Shown here: positions 31,338-40,595 of the stretch, piece after piece
How positions within the stretch are numbered: position 1 is the first letter of the stretch
How the letters are laid out: every line of letters begins with the position of its first letter
NCBI GenBank assembly: GCA_002332755.1
Contig: DDBO01000035.1
Span: forward strand, 1-48,331
DNA length: 48,331 nt
Direction of reading: 5' to 3'
DNA from: Bacteroidales bacterium UBA2030
Lineage (GTDB): Bacteria; Bacteroidota; Bacteroidia; Bacteroidales; TTA-H9
Translations under genes and position numbers: made by a program
The notes under the pieces: model-generated
Databases searched by the model: none
Told to the model about the DNA's origin: nothing
The model's input: only the letters and a program-made list of their open reading frames with translations

Positions 31338-31838
31338 ATGAACGCATCTATGGGCAAAAAAATAAAGACAGAAATCATCCCACTCAGGGGCCTTACGACA
31401 ATCCAATTTGGAGACACCACCGAACAGGTTGAGTTTTTACTCGGCCCTCCAGAAGAAACTGAGGTAATTGATCCTATCGAAGAAGGAGGATTCCCCACCC
31501 TGGTGTATTATTATTGGGATGAATGTATTACCTTCTTCTTCAATCAATCTGCAGAGAAACCATTTCTGATTGCCATGGAAACCGATGACCTGAAGGCCAC
31601 CCTCCTTGATGAACGCATTTTTAAAATGAAACCCGATGAAATTGTATCGCTTATGGCGAGTCAAAAACTGTTTGACTATGAAAAAGAAACAGAAGATTGG
31701 GGTGAAGTGCGTTATACCTGGGAAGAATGGAACATAGATTTTTACTTTGATAAGAATAAACTTTCGGTTGTAAATTGGTCGGCCATACTCGATGCAGAAG
31801 GTAAGGTATTTATTCCAGATGAACCTATCCGCTGGTAA
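31338..31838 (+). CDS. hypothetical acidic cytoplasmic protein
   Basis: 166-aa ORF whose ATG directly abuts the SDR stop (TAAATG). I recognise no motif. Confidence 0.45.
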   Translation: MNASMGKKIKTEIIPLRGLTTIQFGDTTEQVEFLLGPPEETEVIDPIEEGGFPTLVYYYWDECITFFFNQSAEKPFLIAMETDDLKATLLDERIFKMKPDEIVSLMASQKLFDYEKETEDWGEVRYTWEEWNIDFYFDKNKLSVVNWSAILDAEGKVFIPDEPIRW

Positions 31839-32018
31839 GGGTTGGCATTCATCAAGCCTTCTTCGTTTAACCCACCCGCCAATTTACCTCTATTTTAACA
31901 TGATACATCTATGGGCGGAAAACATCCACAATTAATTATAAATCAACACAATAAAACCACTGAATAATTTTATTCGGAAAAAATATTTTGACAGAATATT
32001 GCCATATTCAGAAATTTG

Positions 32019-32026
32019 TATATTTG
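32019..32026 (+). promoter_or_regulatory. candidate -7 promoter box (TATATTTG) for the trp leader transcript
   Basis: Exact TAnnTTTG, 12 nt upstream of the leader ATG. A 6-bp inverted repeat GAATAT-N4-ATATTC (31994-32009) lies just upstream. Confidence 0.35.
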
Positions 32027-32037
32027 CAGCGTCTAAC

Positions 32038-32121
32038 ATGAAAAGGAAAAATATGATATCACAGATAATGAACATAGCTTGGTGGTGGCTTTTCCCGTTG
32101 AAAGCAGGGGGGAAAGTCTGA
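32038..32121 (+). CDS. candidate trp leader peptide (27 aa, three consecutive Trp codons)
   Basis: ATG AAA AGG ... GCT TGG TGG TGG CTT ... GTC TGA translates to MKRKNMISQIMNIAWWWLFPLKAGGKV. The TGG triplet is at 32080-32088. The ORF lies 250 nt upstream of trpB and is followed by a terminator. Confidence 0.6.
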   Translation: MKRKNMISQIMNIAWWWLFPLKAGGKV

Positions 32122-32154
32122 GGCTATTTTATTATCGGAAATCATAAACATATA

Positions 32155-32188
32155 GCGCCGCAGGATACCCCCTGCGGCGTTTTTTGTT
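32155..32188 (+). terminator. intrinsic terminator of the candidate trp attenuator
   Basis: Stem CGCCGCAGG (32156-32164) / CCTGCGGCG (32171-32179), 6-nt loop, then TTTTTTGTT. Confidence 0.75.
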
Positions 32189-32374
32189 ATGTAACACCAA
32201 AAACTCGAAACATGGAAAGAAACATACATATCAGCGCATGGCTCTGGCGGGCAAAGCCCCGCCGCACGAAACGAATAAAACAAAACTCAAGCCTTGCAAC
32301 AAGGCCTTTCAACCATTAACTCAATTGTAATTTTTAAAATTATGTATTTCAAAAACCTTTAAAAACCTAAAACA

Positions 32375-33577
32375 ATGAATATTTCAACAGTAAATTCAAA
32401 CGATATTAAAGTTCGTCCTATCGACAACATGTTAAAATATAACGGACGTTATGGCGAATACGGAGGCGCTTACATACCGGATGTGTTGGCAGTACCTCTC
32501 CAAAAGCTAAGCGAGGCTTTCGACTATTTTTCCCGTGATCCAGAGTTCAGGGCTGAATTTTCCAACATTTTGCGTGATTATGCCGGACGACCCTCACCTC
32601 TATATTTTGCTCAAAAACTTTCAAAACACATAGGCTCAACCCTCTATTTAAAAAGGGAGGATCTCAATCATACAGGTTCGCACAAGATAAATAATACACT
32701 GGGTCAGGCATTGATAGCCAAACGAATGGGGGCGAAAGAAATTGTAGCAGAAACCGGTGCCGGGCAACACGGGGTAGCTACAGCAACAGCAGCGGCACTG
32801 ATGGGTATTCCGTGTAAAATTTTCATGGGAGCAGTAGATGCACGCCGGCAAGCACTCAATGTCAAAAGAATCCAACTTTTAGGAGCCGAAGTAATTACCA
32901 CAACTAGAGGAACAGCCACATTGAAGGATGCTGTAGATGAAGCGTTGAATTATTACATTAGTCATCCGGATGTATTTTATCTCCTGGGCTCGCAAGTTGG
33001 CCCCGACCCCTACCCTCGCATGGTCGGTTTTTTCCAGAGTGTAATCGGGCAGGAAGCACGTGCACAGATTCTAATGAAGGAGGGCCGTTTGCCTGATGCT
33101 GTAATTGCTGCAGTTGGAGGCGGAAGCAATGCCATAGGTTTATTTTCAGGATTTTTAGAGGATCATGAAGTTAAAATTTATGGAGCCGAAGGAGGGGGTG
33201 ATGCCCTGCCCGGAAAAACCGCGGCTACGCTTACTTTCGGGAAACCTATGATTTTCCAGGGAACTTATTCCTATTGCCTCACCAACGACGAAGGTCAGCC
33301 TGTCGAATCTCATTCCGTTGCCGCCGGTCTCGACTATCCCGGTGTCAGTCCACAACATGCCTTCCTGAAAGATAGTAAACGAGCACAGTATTTTGCCGTT
33401 ACTGATAAAGAGGCTATTGAAGCATTTCATTTGCTCTCTCAACTCGAAGGCATCATCCCTGCTATTGAATCGAGTCATGCAGTAGCTTTGGCAATTCGGC
33501 TGCTTCGCAATCAAAACCTGCTGGCAATTGTCAATCTCTCGGGCAGAGGTGATAAAGACGTGGATAGGGATTTTTGA
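32375..33577 (+). CDS. trpB: tryptophan synthase beta chain (TrpB1-type), stand-alone
   Basis: 400 aa with YGGAYIPDVL, the PLP-lysine block LNHTGSHKINN, GAGQHGVATA, GGGSNAIG. No trpA or other trp gene is adjacent. Confidence 0.9.
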   Translation: MNISTVNSNDIKVRPIDNMLKYNGRYGEYGGAYIPDVLAVPLQKLSEAFDYFSRDPEFRAEFSNILRDYAGRPSPLYFAQKLSKHIGSTLYLKREDLNHTGSHKINNTLGQALIAKRMGAKEIVAETGAGQHGVATATAAALMGIPCKIFMGAVDARRQALNVKRIQLLGAEVITTTRGTATLKDAVDEALNYYISHPDVFYLLGSQVGPDPYPRMVGFFQSVIGQEARAQILMKEGRLPDAVIAAVGGGSNAIGLFSGFLEDHEVKIYGAEGGGDALPGKTAATLTFGKPMIFQGTYSYCLTNDEGQPVESHSVAAGLDYPGVSPQHAFLKDSKRAQYFAVTDKEAIEAFHLLSQLEGIIPAIESSHAVALAIRLLRNQNLLAIVNLSGRGDKDVDRDF

Positions 33578-33601: not shown

Positions 33602-33631
33602 CCCCGTTCTGTTTCAAGGGCGGGGTTTTTT
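33602..33631 (+). terminator. Rho-independent terminator after trpB
   Basis: 9-bp stem (CCCCGTTCT / AGGGCGGGG, with 2 G-U pairs), 6-nt loop, T6 run at 33626-33631. Confidence 0.7.
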
Positions 33632-33783: not shown

Positions 33784-33847
33784 TTAACCAATTGGTCAAC
33801 ATTTCGGATTCTTTTCTAATTTTGCCATTAATTAACCATTTAGTTAA
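33784..33847. promoter_or_regulatory. candidate TetR-operon promoter with two inverted repeats sharing TTAACCA
   Basis: TTAACCAATTGGTCAA (33784-33799; the core ACCAATTGGT is a perfect palindrome). A TAATTTTG -7 box sits at 33817-33824. TTAAC-N6-GTTAA lies at 33832-33847. The TetR ATG is at 33861. Confidence 0.35.
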
Positions 33848-33860
33848 AATCAATATTACC

Positions 33861-34526
33861 ATGAAAAAGAACAAAGAAACGGCAACCGAACAAGCCATTT
33901 TGGAGGCAGCACGAAAGGTATTTGTCGAAAAAGGTTTTGACGGAGCAAGGATGCAGGAGATAGCTGATGAAGCAGGCATTAACAAGGCTCTGCTCCATTA
34001 TTATTACCGTTCTAAAGAAAAACTTTTCGAAACGGTGTTTCTGGAAGCCTTTATTAAGGTTGTTCCTTCGGTGTTGGTGATTCTTAATTCCGACGAACCA
34101 CTTTTCAACAAGATTGAACGCTTCGTTAGTAATTATTTGGATGTATTAGCGGAAAACCCGATTATTCCTGGTTTTATTTTACACGAACTTGCGCACAATC
34201 AAAAACGCATTGGTTCACTCATCAGAGGCACAGGTATAAATCCTCAGTTTTTCATAGCACAAATCTACCGAGAGATAGAAGCAGGAAATATCAAAAATTG
34301 CGATCCCAGGCAGCTCATCATCAATATGCTCTCGATGTGCATATTTCCATTTGTTGCCAAACCGATACTGCAGGCTGTGTTTTTCAAAAACAGCGAAGAG
34401 GAGTACAAACAATTTATTGCAGAGCGCAAAGCCGAAGTTACCCGTTTTATCATCGCATCCATACGGAAACAACAGGAAGAGGAAATCATTTTACCCGGTC
34501 AATCCACTCAAAATACTTCCAAATGA
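33861..34526 (+). CDS. TetR/AcrR family transcriptional regulator
   Basis: Start at the ATG at 33861 (MKKNKETATEQAILEAARKVFVEKGFDGARMQEIADEAGINKALLHYYY, an HTH_TetR N-terminus). Confidence 0.85.
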   Translation: MKKNKETATEQAILEAARKVFVEKGFDGARMQEIADEAGINKALLHYYYRSKEKLFETVFLEAFIKVVPSVLVILNSDEPLFNKIERFVSNYLDVLAENPIIPGFILHELAHNQKRIGSLIRGTGINPQFFIAQIYREIEAGNIKNCDPRQLIINMLSMCIFPFVAKPILQAVFFKNSEEEYKQFIAERKAEVTRFIIASIRKQQEEEIILPGQSTQNTSK

Positions 34527-35833
34527 AGGTTATTCATTTTATTGTAAGTAAAAAAACGATTCAGGTTTTTTTCACAGCCTGGCTAATTCTACTGCTAAAA
34601 TCTCAGGCAATACAAGCTCAACCCTTGATGGAACTTTCGTATGAAGATGCCTGCCAGGCCGTTAAAAACCATTCTGCTCTGCGAGAGAACCCCCAAATAC
34701 TGTCCGAAATTGCGAGGATGGCCACTCAGAACATCCATTCAACATGGCTTCCTCAGGCCTTTCTAAATGCACAGGCTACGTGGCAATCGGAAGTTACCCG
34801 GGTTCAAATTCCGATACCTGGAATTTCGCTACCGGAGATTCCACAAGATCAGTATAAACTATCGGCCGAAATCAGCCAATTGATTTACAACGGAAACACC
34901 TCTGTTTACCGCAGGAATCTGGAGCTTTTGCAACAAAAAGCCAACACCCTCGATGTAGAAATGCAATTAGATCTATTGGAGCAACAGGTAGATGCTTTGT
35001 TTTTTCAAATTCAAACCCTCAGGCGGCAGGAAAACATACTTCAATGGCAAACTAAAACGCTGGAAGCAAGACGCCATTCATGCGAAAAACGCAGAATAAA
35101 CGGCATGTCCACCCCTGGAGACTGTGCTTTGCTGGAAGCCGCCATTCTGCAAGTGGCCCAGAAACAAACAGAGACCCGATTCTCTCATGCCTCTGCTATT
35201 CAGCAATTGAGTATGCTCACTGGACTAAATCTTCACGACAGTGTTAAAATCTCATTTCCGGATTTAGCTATGCGGATGAATAGCTCAAATTATAACCGGA
35301 AAGACCTTAACTATTTGGGTGTGAAACAAGAAATGGCAGATGCCCAGATACAACTGGCCCTTTCACGTAAAAAACCTCAGGCAAATGCATTTTTAAATGC
35401 CGGTATGGGTCGTCCGGGACTAAATATGCTTGACCCCGATTTTCAACCCTGGCTCATGACAGGAATACGTTTATCATTACCTCTATTGCAATGGGGAATC
35501 CCCGATCGCGATGCACGCATCGCCGGCTTACAAAAACAATTGACTATCCACCAGCAGGAGAACCTTCTGCAAAGCCTGGACCGTAAAAATGCAGAACTAG
35601 ATTCTGAAATAAAAAAAACAGAAGAAATCATTGAAAATGACCGAAAACTTTTGGTTTTAAGGCAACAAATAACCACTGAAGCCCAATCGCAATACGACAA
35701 CGGAGTGCTCCCTTCTTCGGAATTTACGGCACGCATGGCCGAAGAAGCCGAGGCCCGGCTAAACCTCGAAATACACCAATTGCAGCTTGAATATGTCAGG
35801 CTGAAAAAATATAAACTTTTCAATAACCAATAA
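34523..35833 (+). CDS. TolC family outer membrane efflux protein
   Basis: True start is the ATG at 34523 (MKVIHFIVSKKTIQVFFTAWLILLLKSQAIQAQ signal peptide), overlapping the TetR stop (ATGA). It shows the two-repeat coiled-coil OEP pattern. Confidence 0.8.
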   Translation: MKVIHFIVSKKTIQVFFTAWLILLLKSQAIQAQPLMELSYEDACQAVKNHSALRENPQILSEIARMATQNIHSTWLPQAFLNAQATWQSEVTRVQIPIPGISLPEIPQDQYKLSAEISQLIYNGNTSVYRRNLELLQQKANTLDVEMQLDLLEQQVDALFFQIQTLRRQENILQWQTKTLEARRHSCEKRRINGMSTPGDCALLEAAILQVAQKQTETRFSHASAIQQLSMLTGLNLHDSVKISFPDLAMRMNSSNYNRKDLNYLGVKQEMADAQIQLALSRKKPQANAFLNAGMGRPGLNMLDPDFQPWLMTGIRLSLPLLQWGIPDRDARIAGLQKQLTIHQQENLLQSLDRKNAELDSEIKKTEEIIENDRKLLVLRQQITTEAQSQYDNGVLPSSEFTARMAEEAEARLNLEIHQLQLEYVRLKKYKLFNNQ

Positions 35834-35844
35834 TCCCATTATCC

Positions 35845-36735
35845 ATGAAAAATGCTCTTGTTTTGATCTTTGCAGGTTTATCTTTAGTTTCATGCAATAA
35901 TTCAGTGCCGGAGGCTGATGCTTATGGTAATTTTGAAAGCACACCCATTTATATAACCCCAGAAACCGGAGGCAAAATTCTTACTGTAGTTGTTGATGAA
36001 GGCGATCGGGTGAAAACCGGACAATTAGTAGCCATACTCGATTCTTCCGAAATAGTTATACGGCAAGAGCAAGTGCTTCATCAAATCGAAGCGGCCAATG
36101 CCAGCATATGTGTCAATCAGGCACAGGCTGCGGTTTACGACCAACAGATAGCTAACCTCGAAATTGACCGCAACCGCCTCGAAAAACTGCTTGCAGACGG
36201 ATCAGCCACTCAAAAACAATACGACGATGTGGTAGCTGCCATTTCCCTGGCGCAGAAACAAAAAGCAGCTTTACTTAAACAAAACGACCGTTTACAGGCC
36301 GAAATAGCTGCGCAAAAAAGCCAGATAGACCTTATGCGACTCAATGTGAACAGATGCAGGGTGATGGCCCCATGCGATGGACGTATTCTCAATCTTTATC
36401 AACGCGCGGGTGAGCTGGCAGCCCCAGGTAAACCCCTTATGCGTATGGCCAATACGGATACCCTTTTTCTAAGGGCTTTCGCCTCGGGCGATCAACTGCC
36501 CTTAATTCAAATCGGGCAAAAGGTTACTGTCAGAATCGACGATGGAGCGGGTCAACTTAAGACCTTAGCCGGAACTATCACCTGGATTTCACAGGAAGCC
36601 GAATTCACACCTAAAACCATTCAAACCCGTCGGGAGAGGGTTAATCTGGTATACGCTTTCAAAGTCAAAGTTTTGAACGATGGAAGCCTTAACATTGGAA
36701 TGCCCGGAGAGGTATTTTTTCCTAAAAACAAGTAA
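35845..36735 (+). CDS. HlyD-family periplasmic adaptor (YbhG-like)
   Basis: Lipoprotein-type signal (LVSC), a biotinyl-lipoyl-like segment (GDRVKTGQLVAILD), a long coiled coil, and a beta-barrel C-terminus. Confidence 0.8.
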   Translation: MKNALVLIFAGLSLVSCNNSVPEADAYGNFESTPIYITPETGGKILTVVVDEGDRVKTGQLVAILDSSEIVIRQEQVLHQIEAANASICVNQAQAAVYDQQIANLEIDRNRLEKLLADGSATQKQYDDVVAAISLAQKQKAALLKQNDRLQAEIAAQKSQIDLMRLNVNRCRVMAPCDGRILNLYQRAGELAAPGKPLMRMANTDTLFLRAFASGDQLPLIQIGQKVTVRIDDGAGQLKTLAGTITWISQEAEFTPKTIQTRRERVNLVYAFKVKVLNDGSLNIGMPGEVFFPKNK

Positions 36736-36738
36736 GCA

Positions 36739-37662
36739 ATGGTTATCCTCAACAGGGTTTCAAAAACCTTTGGGAAAATAAAGGCACTGGATGAAGTAAC
36801 TTTTCAGGTGAATGAGGGAGAACTCTTCGGAGTCATTGGGCCTGATGGAGCAGGAAAAACGACTCTTTTCAGAATTCTGGCAACATTGCTGCTACCCACC
36901 GAAGGCCATGCCACAATAAAAAAACACGACGTGGTGCAAGATTTTGGAGTTCTAAGAAAAATCACAGGTTACATGCCTGGGCAGTTCTCGCTGTATCCAG
37001 ACCTTACCGTTGAAGAAAATCTTGAATTTTATGCACGTGTATTCCGCACTCGTGTTGAAGATAACTATTCGCTTATCCGCGATATTTTTACCTATCTGGA
37101 GCCATTTCGAAAACGCAGGGCTGGCAATCTATCCGGAGGGATGAAGCAAAAACTGGCACTTTCATGTGCACTAATCCATCGGCCTGAGATTCTCCTTTTA
37201 GATGAACCGACCACCGGTGTAGATCCGGTTTCGAGAGCCGAATTTTGGGGCTTGCTACATAACCTGCAAAAGCAAGGACTTACCATATTGGTTTCCACGC
37301 CATATATGGACGAAGCAGCCCATTGCAACAGGATTGCTCTTTTACGCCAAGGCCGGATATTAGGCGTAAACACACCCAAAGGTTTACAGGAAGAGTACAG
37401 CCTGCACCTCTGGGGACTTAAAGGTGAACGCCCTGCCCTGCTACTACCCTTGCTTCGCCAGCTTCCAGCTGAATTTAGAGTTTATGCTGCCGGACAGGAG
37501 GTTAGGGTGGCTTGTAGAGAAAGAAATGGGATTGAAAAAATTAAAGCTTTGCTCGAGACCTCGGAAAAATGGGACCATATTCAAATATCATTGGTACAAC
37601 CCGATGTTGAAGATTGTTTTATAGCCTTAATGCAAGAAAACAATGAATTACAATACAAATAA
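36739..37662 (+). CDS. ABC transporter ATP-binding protein
   Basis: Walker A GPDGAGKTT, signature LSGGMKQK, Walker B LLLDEPT. Confidence 0.9.
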   Translation: MVILNRVSKTFGKIKALDEVTFQVNEGELFGVIGPDGAGKTTLFRILATLLLPTEGHATIKKHDVVQDFGVLRKITGYMPGQFSLYPDLTVEENLEFYARVFRTRVEDNYSLIRDIFTYLEPFRKRRAGNLSGGMKQKLALSCALIHRPEILLLDEPTTGVDPVSRAEFWGLLHNLQKQGLTILVSTPYMDEAAHCNRIALLRQGRILGVNTPKGLQEEYSLHLWGLKGERPALLLPLLRQLPAEFRVYAAGQEVRVACRERNGIEKIKALLETSEKWDHIQISLVQPDVEDCFIALMQENNELQYK

Positions 37663-38395
37663 CCTGAGCATCAAGGTCGAAAATCTTGAACGACGTTTTG
37701 GAAATTTCACGGCCGTTAATAAAATCAGTTTTTCGGTCAGGAGGGGTGAGATATTCGGTTTACTTGGGGCCAACGGGGCAGGAAAAACCACGACGCTTCG
37801 AATGCTTTGCGGCCTACTCGCCCCAACCTCGGGAACGGCCCTGATTGACAACACTGATGTTGCCAGGCAACCCGAAAAGGTCAGATTCAAAATTGGTTAC
37901 ATGAGTCAACGGTTTTCACTCTACGAAGACCTTACAGTTTGGGAAAATTTCAGGTTTTATGGTGGCGTTTATGGCATGTCGGCCAAAGACATCAGAAAAA
38001 AATTCGAGGATTTATCTCAAAGGTTAAATTTTGGAGAACAGGCTGACAGATTAACACGAGACCTTCCGCTAGGGTGGAAGCAAAAATTGGCCTTTATGGT
38101 AGCTGCTTTTCACAATCCACCAGTAATATTTCTTGATGAACCTACCAGCGGAGTGGACCCAATGGTCAGGAGGCAGTTTTGGGATCTCATATACGAATCG
38201 GCCCTCGCGGGTACAACTATCATCGTAACTACCCATTACCTGGATGAAGCCATGTATTGCGACCGGCTGGCTATAATGGCCGAAGGTTCCATAAAGGCAT
38301 ACGGAACCCCGGCCGGCGTTTTGGATGAATTCAAGGCAGTGAATATGCAGGAAGTTTTTCTAAAAATAGCTGGAAAGGAGGCGCTTTTGCAATGA
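37643..38395 (+). CDS. ABC transporter ATP-binding protein (second ATPase)
   Basis: Walker A GANGAGKTT, a degenerate signature (LPLGWKQK), Walker B IFLDEPT. It overlaps the previous gene by 20 nt. Confidence 0.9.
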   Translation: MNYNTNNLSIKVENLERRFGNFTAVNKISFSVRRGEIFGLLGANGAGKTTTLRMLCGLLAPTSGTALIDNTDVARQPEKVRFKIGYMSQRFSLYEDLTVWENFRFYGGVYGMSAKDIRKKFEDLSQRLNFGEQADRLTRDLPLGWKQKLAFMVAAFHNPPVIFLDEPTSGVDPMVRRQFWDLIYESALAGTTIIVTTHYLDEAMYCDRLAIMAEGSIKAYGTPAGVLDEFKAVNMQEVFLKIAGKEALLQ

Positions 38396-39483
38396 AAGCC
38401 TTTATCATTAAAGAAATACGACACCTTCTGCGCGATCCACGCTCTTTACTCATTCTCATAGGAATGCCTGTAGCTCAGATCCTTATCTTTGGATATGCGA
38501 TAACCACCGACCTGAAAGAAACCGATATTGCTATCGTTCGTCAGACAAATGACCCTCTCAGCCAGCTTATCATTCAGCATTTGGATGCCTCGCAATGGTT
38601 CAGAATTAAAAAAATAGAAACCAACTCCTCAAGACTTGAAAATGACTTTCGGCGGGGTGAAATCCGTATGACAGTGGCACTTCCCGACAATATGGAAAAA
38701 CGCTTGATGCAGAGTAGCCCTTTAGAAATTCAACTCATTGGCGATGCCTCCGATCCCAACACCGCTAATCTTCTCGCGCAATATGCCAAAGGTATTATCC
38801 GAACCACAGTAGCCCAATCATTCCCAAGCCAGTATTCAGGAATACAAGTTACCTCCCGAATGCTTTACAACGAAGAAATTCGCAGTGTATTTATGTTTGT
38901 TCCGGGAACCATAGTTATCCTGCTGATGCTCCTTTCAGCCATAATGACCAGTATCAGCCTGACACGAGAAAAGGAATCAGGATCAATGGAAGTATTATTG
39001 GTATCTCCACTCCGTCCTTATGAAATCATTCTGGGCAAAGTAATTCCCTATATTGGCCTTTCATTTCTCAATGCGGCCATCATTTTGCTACTGGCTCGTT
39101 TTCTGTTTGGAATGCCCTTCAGGGGTAGCATGGCTCTACTGCTGGCAGAAACAGTGCTTTTCATTGCATTGGCGCTGAGTCTGGGCATATTCATTTCTAC
39201 GATTACCCTCACTCAACAAATGGCCATGCTGTTGTCGATGTTTGCATTAATGCTGCCTACCATTCTGCTTTCCGGCTTTATTTTTCCCATAGAAAATATG
39301 CCCCTTTGGCTACAATATTTATCCAATCTCATGCCTCCGCGCTGGTTTGTGGTCATCATTCGAGGGATTATGATCCGCGGCATAGGGTTGGAATATTTAT
39401 GGAAAGAGACACTTATTCTTGCAGGAATGACGCTGATTTTTATCCTGCTTAGTATTAAAAAATTCAAACTAAGGCTCGAATAA
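38392..39483 (+). CDS. ABC-2 type transporter permease (YbhS/YbhR-like)
   Basis: N-terminal TM, a large extracytoplasmic loop, then 5 C-terminal TMs with an EKESGSMEVLLVSP block. ATGA overlap with the ATPase gene. Confidence 0.85.
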   Translation: MKAFIIKEIRHLLRDPRSLLILIGMPVAQILIFGYAITTDLKETDIAIVRQTNDPLSQLIIQHLDASQWFRIKKIETNSSRLENDFRRGEIRMTVALPDNMEKRLMQSSPLEIQLIGDASDPNTANLLAQYAKGIIRTTVAQSFPSQYSGIQVTSRMLYNEEIRSVFMFVPGTIVILLMLLSAIMTSISLTREKESGSMEVLLVSPLRPYEIILGKVIPYIGLSFLNAAIILLLARFLFGMPFRGSMALLLAETVLFIALALSLGIFISTITLTQQMAMLLSMFALMLPTILLSGFIFPIENMPLWLQYLSNLMPPRWFVVIIRGIMIRGIGLEYLWKETLILAGMTLIFILLSIKKFKLRLE

Positions 39484-39485
39484 TT

Positions 39486-40595
39486 ATGAGAACTCTGTTC
39501 TATATCATACAAAAAGAATTTATTCAAATTTTTCGCGACCGCCTGATGCCCCGCATAATTATCGGAGTGCCTCTTTTGCAGATGCTGGTGCTTGCCTATG
39601 CAGCCACCTTCGAAGTGAAAGACACCCGGCTGGTGGTGGCCGATCTATCCCTGTCGGAAGATTCGCGTCAGTTAATTGCACATTTTGAAGGAAGTCGCTT
39701 TTTCAAGGTTGTAGCCGTATTTCCTGATTACAAAGAAGCCGAACATTTGTTGCTTAAGGGTAAAGCCCATCAAATCCTTGTGATACCTGCGGATTTTGCC
39801 GGAGCTTCGCATCGCGGAGAGGTTCCCAGAGTTCAGATATTAACCGATGCCGTCGATGCACTTGCGGCCGGAGTCAGAACCGGATATGCACTTCAGGTAA
39901 TTGAATCATTTGGGAAAAATATTAGTCCGAAAGTTACTTCCATACCCAACGATGGTTTGCAGTTTAAGGAGCTGTTTTGGTATAATCCATCGCTTAATTA
40001 TCAAACCTATATGGTTCCCGGTATATTGGCCCATCTGGTAACCATTTTGGGGATGTTTCTGTCAGCGCTCAATATTGTTAAAGAAAAAGAACGGGGCACC
40101 ATTGAACAGATAAATGTTACCCCAGTTAAAAAATATCAATTCATTGCAGGAAAATTGCTTCCCTTCTGGTTGCTTGCCCTGTTCGACCTGGCTTTTGGAC
40201 TTCTTCTGGCCAAATTTATTTTTCAATTGCCCATGTTAGGAAGCATACCCCTTCTATTCTTTACAGCCTCATTGTATCTTGTTGTGGTACTTTCTTTTGG
40301 ACTGATTATCAGCACACTTGCCGAAACTCAACAGCAGGCGATGTTCATTGCCTGGTTTTTTGCGATCGTTTTTCTAATGCTCAGCGGTCTTTTTACCCCA
40401 ATAGATAGCATGCCCATTTGGGCTAAAGTATTCAATTACTTTAATCCAGTGGCATATTTTATAAAGGCACTCAGAATGATACTTTTGAAGGGCAGTGGTA
40501 TAAAAGAACTCTGGAGCTTACTGTGCATCCTTGCCATCTACGCAATAGCCTCGCTCTCATTTGCAACAAGGTGGTATCGTAAGACAAGTTCATAA
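39486..40595 (+). CDS. ABC-2 type transporter permease (second)
   Basis: Same architecture, with an EKERGTIEQINVTP block. It starts 2 nt after the previous stop. Confidence 0.85.
   Translation: MRTLFYIIQKEFIQIFRDRLMPRIIIGVPLLQMLVLAYAATFEVKDTRLVVADLSLSEDSRQLIAHFEGSRFFKVVAVFPDYKEAEHLLLKGKAHQILVIPADFAGASHRGEVPRVQILTDAVDALAAGVRTGYALQVIESFGKNISPKVTSIPNDGLQFKELFWYNPSLNYQTYMVPGILAHLVTILGMFLSALNIVKEKERGTIEQINVTPVKKYQFIAGKLLPFWLLALFDLAFGLLLAKFIFQLPMLGSIPLLFFTASLYLVVVLSFGLIISTLAETQQQAMFIAWFFAIVFLMLSGLFTPIDSMPIWAKVFNYFNPVAYFIKALRMILLKGSGIKELWSLLCILAIYAIASLSFATRWYRKTSS

Follow-up and report, generated by a model that had tools for sequence, protein, structure and literature searches.

We analysed the contig DDBO01000035.1 of Bacteroidales bacterium UBA2030 (48,331 nucleotides, G+C content 42.7%; this whole stretch is called the window below), and more precisely the region upstream of its trpB gene, which codes for the beta subunit of tryptophan synthase. 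In a search with the NCBIfam profile TIGR00263, this gene scores 528.9 bits (cutoff 392), which makes it a canonical trpB, and it stands alone, as had been claimed before: the genes on both sides are unrelated to it, those located 5' of the leader being a short-chain dehydrogenase gene and an unannotated open reading frame (ORF) of 166 amino acids. In the relatives too trpB is a single gene, and its neighbours vary from genome to genome and are mutually unrelated. We propose, with a probability of roughly 0.8, that positions 32019–32374 are the regulatory leader of a stand-alone trpB in Bacteroidales, in which a tryptophan (Trp) attenuator is followed by a second ORF with Trp codons. The features of the locus are collected in Table 1.

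Table 1. Features of the trpB locus, with their positions in the window and what each assignment is based on.
Feature	Position	Strand	Description	Basis
Putative -7 promoter box, Bacteroidetes type	32019–32026	+	TATATTTG (TAnnTTTG), 11 nt 5' of the first leader ATG	Read from the sequence; promoter function inferred
Leader ORF 1	32038–32121	+	MKRKNMISQIMNIAWWWLFPLKAGGKV, then stop; 27 codons	Sequence; homologous leaders in near relatives
Trp codons of leader 1 (WWW), predicted sensing site	32080–32088	+	Three consecutive codons, TGGTGGTGG	Sequence; TGGTGG(TGG) is the best-conserved block of alignment A1
Long anti-antiterminator ("1:2") hairpin	32052–32146	+	5' arm 32052–32100, with WWW; 3' arm 32105–32146	Minimum free energy folds; alignment A3
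Region 2, upstream antiterminator strand	32104–32127	+	GCAGGGGG 32104–32111, UCUG 32117–32120, GCUAU 32123–32127	Constrained fold; own-versus-other-terminator test
Intrinsic terminator T1	32154–32185	+	11-bp stem 32154–32164/32171–32181, loop AUACCC, U6 32180–32185	Fold (-21.2 kcal/mol); consensus scan
Leader ORF 2	32212–32319	+	MERNIHISAWLWRAKPRRTKRIKQNSSLATRPFNH, then stop (MERNIHISAWLWRAKPRR...); W-L-W at 32239–32241 and 32245–32247	Sequence; conserved before trpB
Hairpin P1	32245–32264	+	UGGCGGG/CCCGCCG, loop CAAAGC; 5' arm starts in the last Trp codon of leader 2	Fold; comparison
Small hairpin	32289–32307	+	AAGCCUUG-CAA-CAAGGCCUU, then just UUUC; no counterpart in the nearest relatives	Terminator scan; fold
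trpB (tryptophan synthase beta)	32375–33577	+	Canonical TrpB1 type, single-gene unit	Pfam PALP; NCBIfam TIGR00263
Terminator closing the trpB unit	33602–33631	+	Stem-loop 33602–33625, then T6	Consensus terminator scan

The first leader opens with the TAnnTTTG box, and this putative promoter element marks the window as Bacteroidetes-like. In 16 of 29 relatives, the 90 nt before leader 1 contain an exact copy of the motif, for an expectation of 0.05 per 90 nt. The box, the 27-codon ORF with its three consecutive Trp codons, the terminator and two pairings that compete with it had all been listed in an earlier note on this DNA, and a base-by-base check found every one of them in its place. The start of leader 1 is ambiguous, with three in-frame candidates, the ATGs at 32038, 32053 and 32068. 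The ORF ends on a UGA stop codon (32119–32121), and exactly 34 nt separate it from the core stem of T1, in which CGCCGCAGG (32156–32164) and CCTGCGGCG (32171–32179) form a perfect helix of 9 bp. This spacing, the 9-bp stem and the T6 are as had been described, and the stem extends further, to 11 bp (32154–32181). T1 is detected independently by a consensus terminator scan. The codon run TGGTGGTGG occurs three times in the window, both strands counted; it is not rare by itself, so that its significance comes from its context and its conservation rather than from the run of triplets.

Regarding the pairings that would compete with the terminator, the complementarity between GCAGGGGG (32104–32111) and CCCCCTGC (32168–32175) is perfect over 8 bp, as proposed in the earlier note, and corresponds to the core of the conserved antiterminator. 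The other proposed pairing, between TCTGAGGC (also as TCUGAGGC) and GCCGCAGG, does involve seven of the eight positions, one of them a G-U pair, but it is weaker, and one pair is lost in two near relatives (L205 and L206) in which the stop codon is UAA. Both pairings exclude the terminator, and they are two helices of a single nested antiterminator. Its upstream strand, region 2, covers the last codons of leader 1 and the UGA stop, and its downstream strand (32152–32175) comprises the 5' arm of T1, the loop and the first bases of the 3' arm. The long anti-antiterminator hairpin was absent from the earlier description: the antiterminator segment and the stop codon belong to its 3' arm, and in RNA free of ribosomes both competing segments are locked up in it.

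The folding energy of the 161-nt leader is -63.4 kcal/mol, compared with -36.1 ± 3.9 kcal/mol for 200 dinucleotide shuffles (z = -7.0), none of which folds as well. We then carried out the constrained folding that had been suggested in the earlier note, by masking the footprint of a ribosome positioned at chosen codons and refolding the leader to its minimum free energy, and obtained the three states of a classical attenuator. The naked RNA forms the long hairpin together with T1 (-60.3 kcal/mol). With the third Trp codon in the A site, the most stable structure is the antiterminator (-26.8 kcal/mol) and T1 is absent: region 2 pairs with 32152–32175 through the helices GCAGGGGG:CCCCCUGC, UCUG:CAGG and GCUAU:AUAGC. 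When the ribosome is masked at the stop codon of leader 1, T1 re-forms. Transcripts that stop short of a complete 3' arm of T1 adopt the antiterminator fold, both for the window and for most relatives.

The mechanism that we propose is the following. Transcription would start from the TAnnTTTG promoter, and the transcript would almost immediately encode the 27-codon leader peptide with its WWW. Without any ribosome, the region of the Trp codons would pair with the end of the leader ORF in the long hairpin, T1 would form and transcription would stop. With ample Trp, the ribosome would reach the UGA stop and cover the segment GCAGGGGG...UCUGAGGCUAU, and T1 would form again. When charged tRNA-Trp is scarce, the ribosome would stall on WWW and open the long hairpin; the freed GCAGGGGG...UCUGAGGCUAU segment would then pair with 32152–32175 as it emerges, T1 would be blocked and the polymerase would continue to trpB. 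If this is correct, changing GCAGGGGG to GCACCCCC is predicted to abolish read-through, and a compensating change in CCCCCUGC to restore it.

The conservation of this unit was studied in a homolog scan restricted to one genome per species, which gave 80 trpB loci. Most of them, from Bacteroidales and Flavobacteriaceae, have a short upstream ORF with WW or WWW followed by a terminator; such a mini-ORF and terminator precede trpB in 56 of 86 loci of relatives. The alignment of the regions upstream of trpB, which the earlier note had also called for, shows that the run of Trp codons and the stems are conserved. In 20 aligned leaders, the conserved blocks are TGGTGGTGG, the terminator GGCCGCAGG...CCCCUGCGGCC and, three to four codons ahead of the stop, a run of G; T1 is conserved in these 20 loci with four compensatory pairs. 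RNAalifold, applied to the MAFFT alignment of the 20 leaders, recovers the terminator only. MAFFT misaligned the G-run of the window, so that column-based counts of antiterminator pairs on alignment A1 are meaningless, and we replaced them by duplex energies calculated for each sequence and by a permutation test in which the leader of each locus is confronted with its own terminator and with those of the other loci. For 46 distinct leader/terminator loci, the 3' end of the leader pairs with the apex of its own terminator at -11.8 kcal/mol on average, compared with -9.7 kcal/mol for the terminators of other loci (permutation p = 5e-5; mean z relative to shuffles, -2.1). The leader tracks the terminator loop where the latter has changed: AGGAGUUCCUGC is found with GCAGGAACUCCU over 12 nt in L209, AGGGUU with AACCCU in L008, and CAGGUAUAU... 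with ...UAUAACCUG in L044.

Nearer relatives were obtained through TrpB homologues of 78–85% identity. Their leader 1 peptides are MHSQTMKMTWWWLFPEKKGGKV (L205), ...AWWWLFLKNTRGKV (L206) and ...IAWWWLFPLNKRGKV (L207); leader 1 is poorly conserved as a peptide, except for the W run and the codons that take part in RNA pairing. On the alignment of these near relatives (A3), 75% of the cells can pair according to the hairpin-plus-terminator structure, versus 40–49% for slid controls, and nine pairs are changed on both sides, a number that is reached in 4 of 500 shuffles. Four contigs with identical TrpB show no differences across the whole region, so that variation at the strain level is uninformative; the same contig is present in several public assemblies, for example GCA_030445915.1. 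The sequence parts of the first leader and its three alternative folds are conserved, and the folds covary. The logic of a ribosome-mediated Trp attenuator, as put forward in the earlier note, is supported by the constrained folds, by conservation and by the covariation of the antiterminator, which together argue for such a switch in front of trpB.

A leader of this kind has been predicted before. Weinberg et al. 2010 (Genome Biol 11:R31, PMC2864571) described a "Bacteroid-trp leader" upstream of trpB or trpE, which is the Rfam family RF01692 ("Bacteroidete tryptophan peptide leader RNA"), with seeds from Bacteroides, Parabacteroides, Flavobacterium and Cytophaga records. The layout of these seeds, with a UAUAUUUG box, an AUG, UGGUGGUGG, a hairpin, a terminator and trpB, is also that of the window. 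The two have in common that they occur in Bacteroidetes upstream of trpB (or trpE), that a TAnnTTTG box precedes a short ORF with at least two UGG codons, that the UGG run sits in the 5' arm of a hairpin which is followed by a terminator starting AAGGC.../GCGCC..., and that the same attenuation by a Trp leader peptide is proposed. In the alignment to the RF01692 model, UGGUGGUGG of the window is placed on UGGuGGUG of the model, in the 5' arm, and the two hairpins are likewise superposed. The difference lies downstream: in the seed records of Parabacteroides distasonis and three others the terminator is about 40–60 nt from the trpB ATG and there is no second leader, whereas in the window the terminator is 190 nt from trpB, with a second upstream ORF (uORF) containing Trp codons and a hairpin in between. 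We found no experimental test of leader-peptide attenuation in Bacteroidota, either in Weinberg et al. 2010 or in full-text searches.

The design is also that of trpL of E. coli. Here as there, an ORF with tandem Trp codons precedes Trp-biosynthetic genes, an intrinsic terminator (3:4) lies between the leader ORF and the structural gene, a 1:2 hairpin contains the regulatory codons, and a mutually exclusive 2:3 antiterminator has an upstream strand that would be free when the ribosome stalls and covered when it terminates, as the folds and the 46-locus test indicate for the window; the stop codon is placed so that the terminating ribosome would cover region 2. The two leaders nevertheless share no sequence homology, and the proteobacterial Trp_leader family RF00513 has no match at E <= 10 in 31800–32450. 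There are three Trp codons in the window and two in trpL; in the window the partner of the antiterminator strand comprises the terminator loop and both arms, in E. coli the 5' arm only; and a single trpB with a Bacteroidetes promoter and almost no 5' untranslated region replaces trpEDCBA.

Could T1 be controlled by a factor acting in trans (a protein resembling TRAP, a tRNA contacted as in a T-box, or a small molecule bound by a riboswitch), the Trp codons not being the sensor? We consider this very unlikely. The 3' half of the leader has a weak likeness to the "trpB motif" RF04312, which its authors consider a riboswitch candidate, an attenuator being also possible according to them. The score is 24 bits for a threshold of 59; the alignment passes over the model's 40-nt P1 and depends on GGCUAUUUUA and the terminator. 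We rejected membership of RF04312, as the score is sub-threshold and not significant and the taxa differ (Firmicutes/Fusobacteria). At gathering thresholds, Rfam gives zero matches over the whole window, and no T-box family matches at E <= 10 in the region; a permissive Rfam scan returns the sub-threshold RF01692 and RF04312 matches and otherwise noise. Moreover, the in-frame succession of ATG, W run and stop is conserved while the surrounding sequence changes, and the antiterminator segment and the stop codon overlap in the very register that a terminating ribosome would cover. It may be noted that the trpB leader of a Flavobacteriaceae genome (L026, 528–621) scores 36 bits on RF04312, and this hints that part of the trpB motif class could be leader-peptide attenuators.

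Also very unlikely, and slightly less credible than a trans-acting factor, is the idea of a separate small gene made up of the promoter, the WWW ORF and the terminator, for a small RNA or a Trp-rich peptide of 27 amino acids acting in trans, whose proximity to trpB is incidental. The unit does have its own promoter-like box and a strong terminator, a terminated transcript of about 155 nt would accumulate with ample Trp, and trpB starts 190 nt further downstream; against this, the unit precedes trpB in dozens of genomes that otherwise have unrelated neighbouring genes, its peptide is poorly conserved beyond the W run and the pairing codons, and its alternative pairings covary. Pure chance, with T1 ending the upstream gene (31338–31838) and a coincidental WWW mini-ORF, has next to no probability: even though TGGTGGTGG is not unique in the window and no other terminator is predicted between 31838 and 32154, the fold has a z-score of -7 and the leader-plus-terminator unit is conserved before trpB whatever the upstream gene.

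The 190-nt spacer between T1 and trpB contains the second ORF with Trp codons, which was absent from the earlier note. Leader 2 is present upstream of trpB in all the closest relatives. We collected 29 distinct variants, all of which have an in-frame start codon (13 ATG, 13 TTG and 3 GTG), located 9–28 codons (usually 9–17) before a W-x-W(-x-W) or WWW cluster. Hairpin P1 was found in 28 distinct sequences, with arms GGCGGGG/CCCCGCC, GGCGGGC/GCCCGCC or, in L209, CUCUGGCAG/CUGCCAGAG; in the subclade of the window the top pair is flipped, giving GGCGGGC/GCCCGCC. In L209 this is a different hairpin of 12 bp, UGGCUCUGGCAG/CUGCCAGAGCCA, and the sequence encodes WLWQEAA, while the others encode WLWR(G/A)xP (WLWRAKP in the window). 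In the main group, the stem codons of P1 show no synonymous variation, and the position of the stop codon is free, the ORF extending 8 to 35 codons beyond the start of the W cluster. There is evidence that the constraint on leader 2 would act on the RNA and not on the peptide. A pattern scan of metagenomes for P1 gave eight hits in low-GC DNA that correspond to the leader 2 element, with trpB downstream in six and the end of the contig in two; the remaining hits are chance matches in GC-rich DNA. The element has no match in Rfam, and full-text searches found no description of tandem Trp leaders or of leader 2.

In other Bacteroidales, the place between the first attenuator and trpB is taken by another type of second leader, IWWxRIxFLW (L041, 2861–2923; L044, 2691–2762; L053, 2822–2941; L054, 2813–2896; L058, 2809–2919; L061, 2431–2535; L065, 2824–2928), the last Trp codon of which is usually at the base of a hairpin too. 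That an unrelated sequence follows the same design rule suggests a general principle. We also observed that CGCCGCA at 32260–32266, in the 3' arm of P1 and just after it, is identical to part of the 5' arm of T1 and could pair over 7 bp with UGCGGCG (32173–32179) in the 3' arm of T1; this complementarity is seen in L205 (CGCCGCAG) as well, but not in every relative, and it may mean that the two modules are connected at long range or that they have a common origin.

Several observations weigh against the proposed reading of the leader. Regarding its first part, the function (promoter activity, translation of leader 1 and Trp-dependent read-through) is what we infer from sequence. For a ribosome with its A site on the first or the second Trp codon, T1 is still part of the equilibrium fold, which means that the switch depends on the exact, assumed footprint of the ribosome and on co-transcriptional kinetics. 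Among the four nearest sequences, the antiterminator helix specific to the window shows no compensatory change, and the outer GC/AG pairs and the UCUG:CAGG helix are partly lost. The covariation tests bear on related sequences, which inflates their significance; the direction is consistent. The window scores 21.9 bits on RF01692, for a gathering threshold of 49 (E = 4.9–8.3), and the relatives give no match at the gathering threshold in 20 loci and none at E <= 10 in 12 more. On this score, and going by its layout, the first leader is a divergent member of the already-predicted RF01692 kind. Regarding the second part, when the 5' arm of P1 is masked, no other pairing takes its place and the hairpins further downstream stay as they are; the complementarity of leader 2 to the start of trpB gives duplex z-scores of about 0 in 15 loci; the C/G ratio downstream of P1 is inconsistent across relatives, from 0.7 to 2.9; and in L039, a Tenuifilaceae metagenome-assembled genome (MAG), the second Trp codon of leader 2 (at about 2760–2780) is TGA (TGG ACA TGA CGT TGG CGG), which points to an error in sequencing or else to a uORF naturally cut short ahead of the hairpin.

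We discarded several candidates for the output of leader 2. No U-tract terminator follows P1, in the window or in any relative. Downstream hairpins P2 and P3 covary in one subclade and are absent from that of the window, and a classical attenuator was rejected for want of an alternative helix and of a U-tract after P2/P3. Sequestration of the start of trpB was rejected on the basis of the duplex z-scores, and a Rho site downstream of P1 because the C/G signal is not consistent. An arrest peptide of the TnaC or SecM type was rejected because L209 keeps a hairpin (of 12 bp) and not the peptide, R-(G/A)-x-P, whose codons are otherwise invariant and make up the hairpin, being replaced there by QEAA.

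We consider that leader 2 is most likely a second Trp-tRNA checkpoint in series with the first, in which a ribosome stalled on W-L-W would prevent the formation of P1. This is the most economical proposal, since the design rule is that of the first leader: a stall on the W codons blocks a hairpin. The regulated step could be a pause, Rho-dependent termination or the stability of the RNA. More specifically, leader 2 might be an undescribed Trp-sensing uORF module of Bacteroidota, the output of which is not a hairpin followed by a U-tract, so that two serial checkpoints would operate by different mechanisms; we put this forward tentatively.

TnaC, the leader peptide of the E. coli tryptophanase operon, offers a possible analogue: there is no intrinsic terminator, and the stalled ribosome controls Rho-dependent termination. 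The difference is that TnaC senses free Trp by means of a conserved nascent peptide and stalls at the stop codon, whereas the leader 2 peptide is not conserved beyond the W codons and the position of its stop varies. By analogy with the masking of a Rho site by the stalled ribosome in tnaC, leader 2 and P1 could form a Rho-dependent or pause-based attenuator, a proposal of low probability that is our preferred guess for the output and to which we give less weight than to the general module described above. Ribosomes stalled and queued on W-L-W would occupy the 5' part of the uORF, which is rich in C and poor in G, and would melt P1, so that Rho would be kept from the polymerase; with ample Trp the RNA would be cleared and Rho would terminate transcription before trpB. 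The lack of a U-tract terminator after P1 in any relative and the fact that the last W codon always opens the hairpin are consistent with this model, as is the composition of the RNA around leader 2, with much A and C and little G, which is seen in the window (C/G = 2.9), in L009 and L059 and, by eye, in L206 and L209. Conversely, the excess of C over G is absent in L010–L015 (C/G 0.7–0.9), no rut site or pause signal is identifiable from the sequence, and the mechanism is wholly conjectural.

It is unlikely that the GC palindrome of leader 2 serves as an operator, bound as DNA by a dimeric transcription factor, or that the element is a functionless, decaying duplicate of the first attenuator. 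The former could explain why P1 shows almost no covariation in the main group, GGCGGGG/CCCCGCC being invariant in 17 sequences, and the latter why the arms of P1 resemble those of T1 (CCGCAG/CUGCGG). We favor the RNA because the hairpin persists with different sequences, GGCGGGC/GCCCGCC and CUCUGGCAG/CUGCCAGAG of L209, and always keeps its register relative to a start codon and to Trp codons in frame with it, which would be meaningless at the level of DNA; decay is also at odds with a conservation that spans TrpB identities of 68–100%.

Leaders with two ORFs in series are not without parallel, the nearest analogue being in Salmonella. According to Lee and Groisman 2012 (PMC3641672), the Salmonella mgtCBR leader contains tandem attenuators, mgtM and mgtP, which sense different signals; as in the window, two short ORFs follow each other in a long mRNA leader, and the translation of each is thought to select between alternative stem-loops. 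The window differs in that both ORFs contain Trp codons, so that the same signal would be sensed twice; the organisms are not related, nor are the leaders homologous. Literature searches on Trp leaders of Bacteroidetes and on tandem or Rho-dependent leaders brought up just Weinberg et al. 2010 and the mgtCBR leader.

Regarding the surroundings of the leader, the 166-amino-acid ORF (31338–31838) has no match in Pfam or NCBIfam, and a product of 162 amino acids is called at its site in the identical contigs and in the near relatives L205 and L207. On the 3' side of trpB (33792–40595), genes for a TetR-family regulator, an outer-membrane efflux protein, an HlyD-type adaptor, two ABC ATPases and two ABC-2 permeases make up an ordinary efflux cluster; the TetR gene is also 3' of trpB in the nearest relatives L206 and L207. 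The closest TrpB proteins are those of Bacteroidales and Tenuifilaceae MAGs and of Tenuifilum isolates. In two of the loci that were compared, other elements were noticed. Just 5' of the trpB leader of the metagenomic contig L209 (122–260), a 36-nt repeat, GTTGTCAAAGTTACGAATTTGCAAGCATCTCACAAC, occurs twice with a 30-nt spacer, and looks like the end of a CRISPR (clustered regularly interspaced short palindromic repeats) array, judging by the GTTG...CAAC ends of the repeat. L007 contains a DUF805 RNA motif (RF03081, 404–472 on the minus strand, 71.8 bits) which is unrelated to trpB.

Nothing at this locus overturns expectation. The full leader, with two uORFs containing Trp codons in series, is, as we read it, a new arrangement of a known kind of attenuator. 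To our knowledge, initiation of translation in Bacteroidota is not led by Shine-Dalgarno sequences, and the coupling of transcription and translation in this phylum is poorly understood. The locus is compact, each of its parts has been mapped, from the promoter box and the WWW leader to the terminator and the three alternative structures, and it precedes a single gene, which makes for a simple read-out; it is therefore a defined test case for attenuation in Bacteroidota. Both leaders are also present in a cultured organism, Perlabentimonas gracilis M08_MB (L014, NZ_JAANIG010000030.1), as MTTMICISWWWQGKNSQTRGR and ...LILIWTWRWRGLPAQ... with P1, which could serve as the experimental organism. 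The fact that the Rfam model misses the whole clade implies that such attenuators are under-annotated in Bacteroidales MAGs. If the second uORF is functional, it would show how, in this phylum, the stalling of a ribosome can regulate a gene that has no intrinsic terminator in front of it, and why sensors of the same signal stand in series, for example to obtain a steeper response or a lower basal level. Last, the existence of a stand-alone, Trp-regulated trpB suggests that these anaerobes salvage indole into tryptophan.

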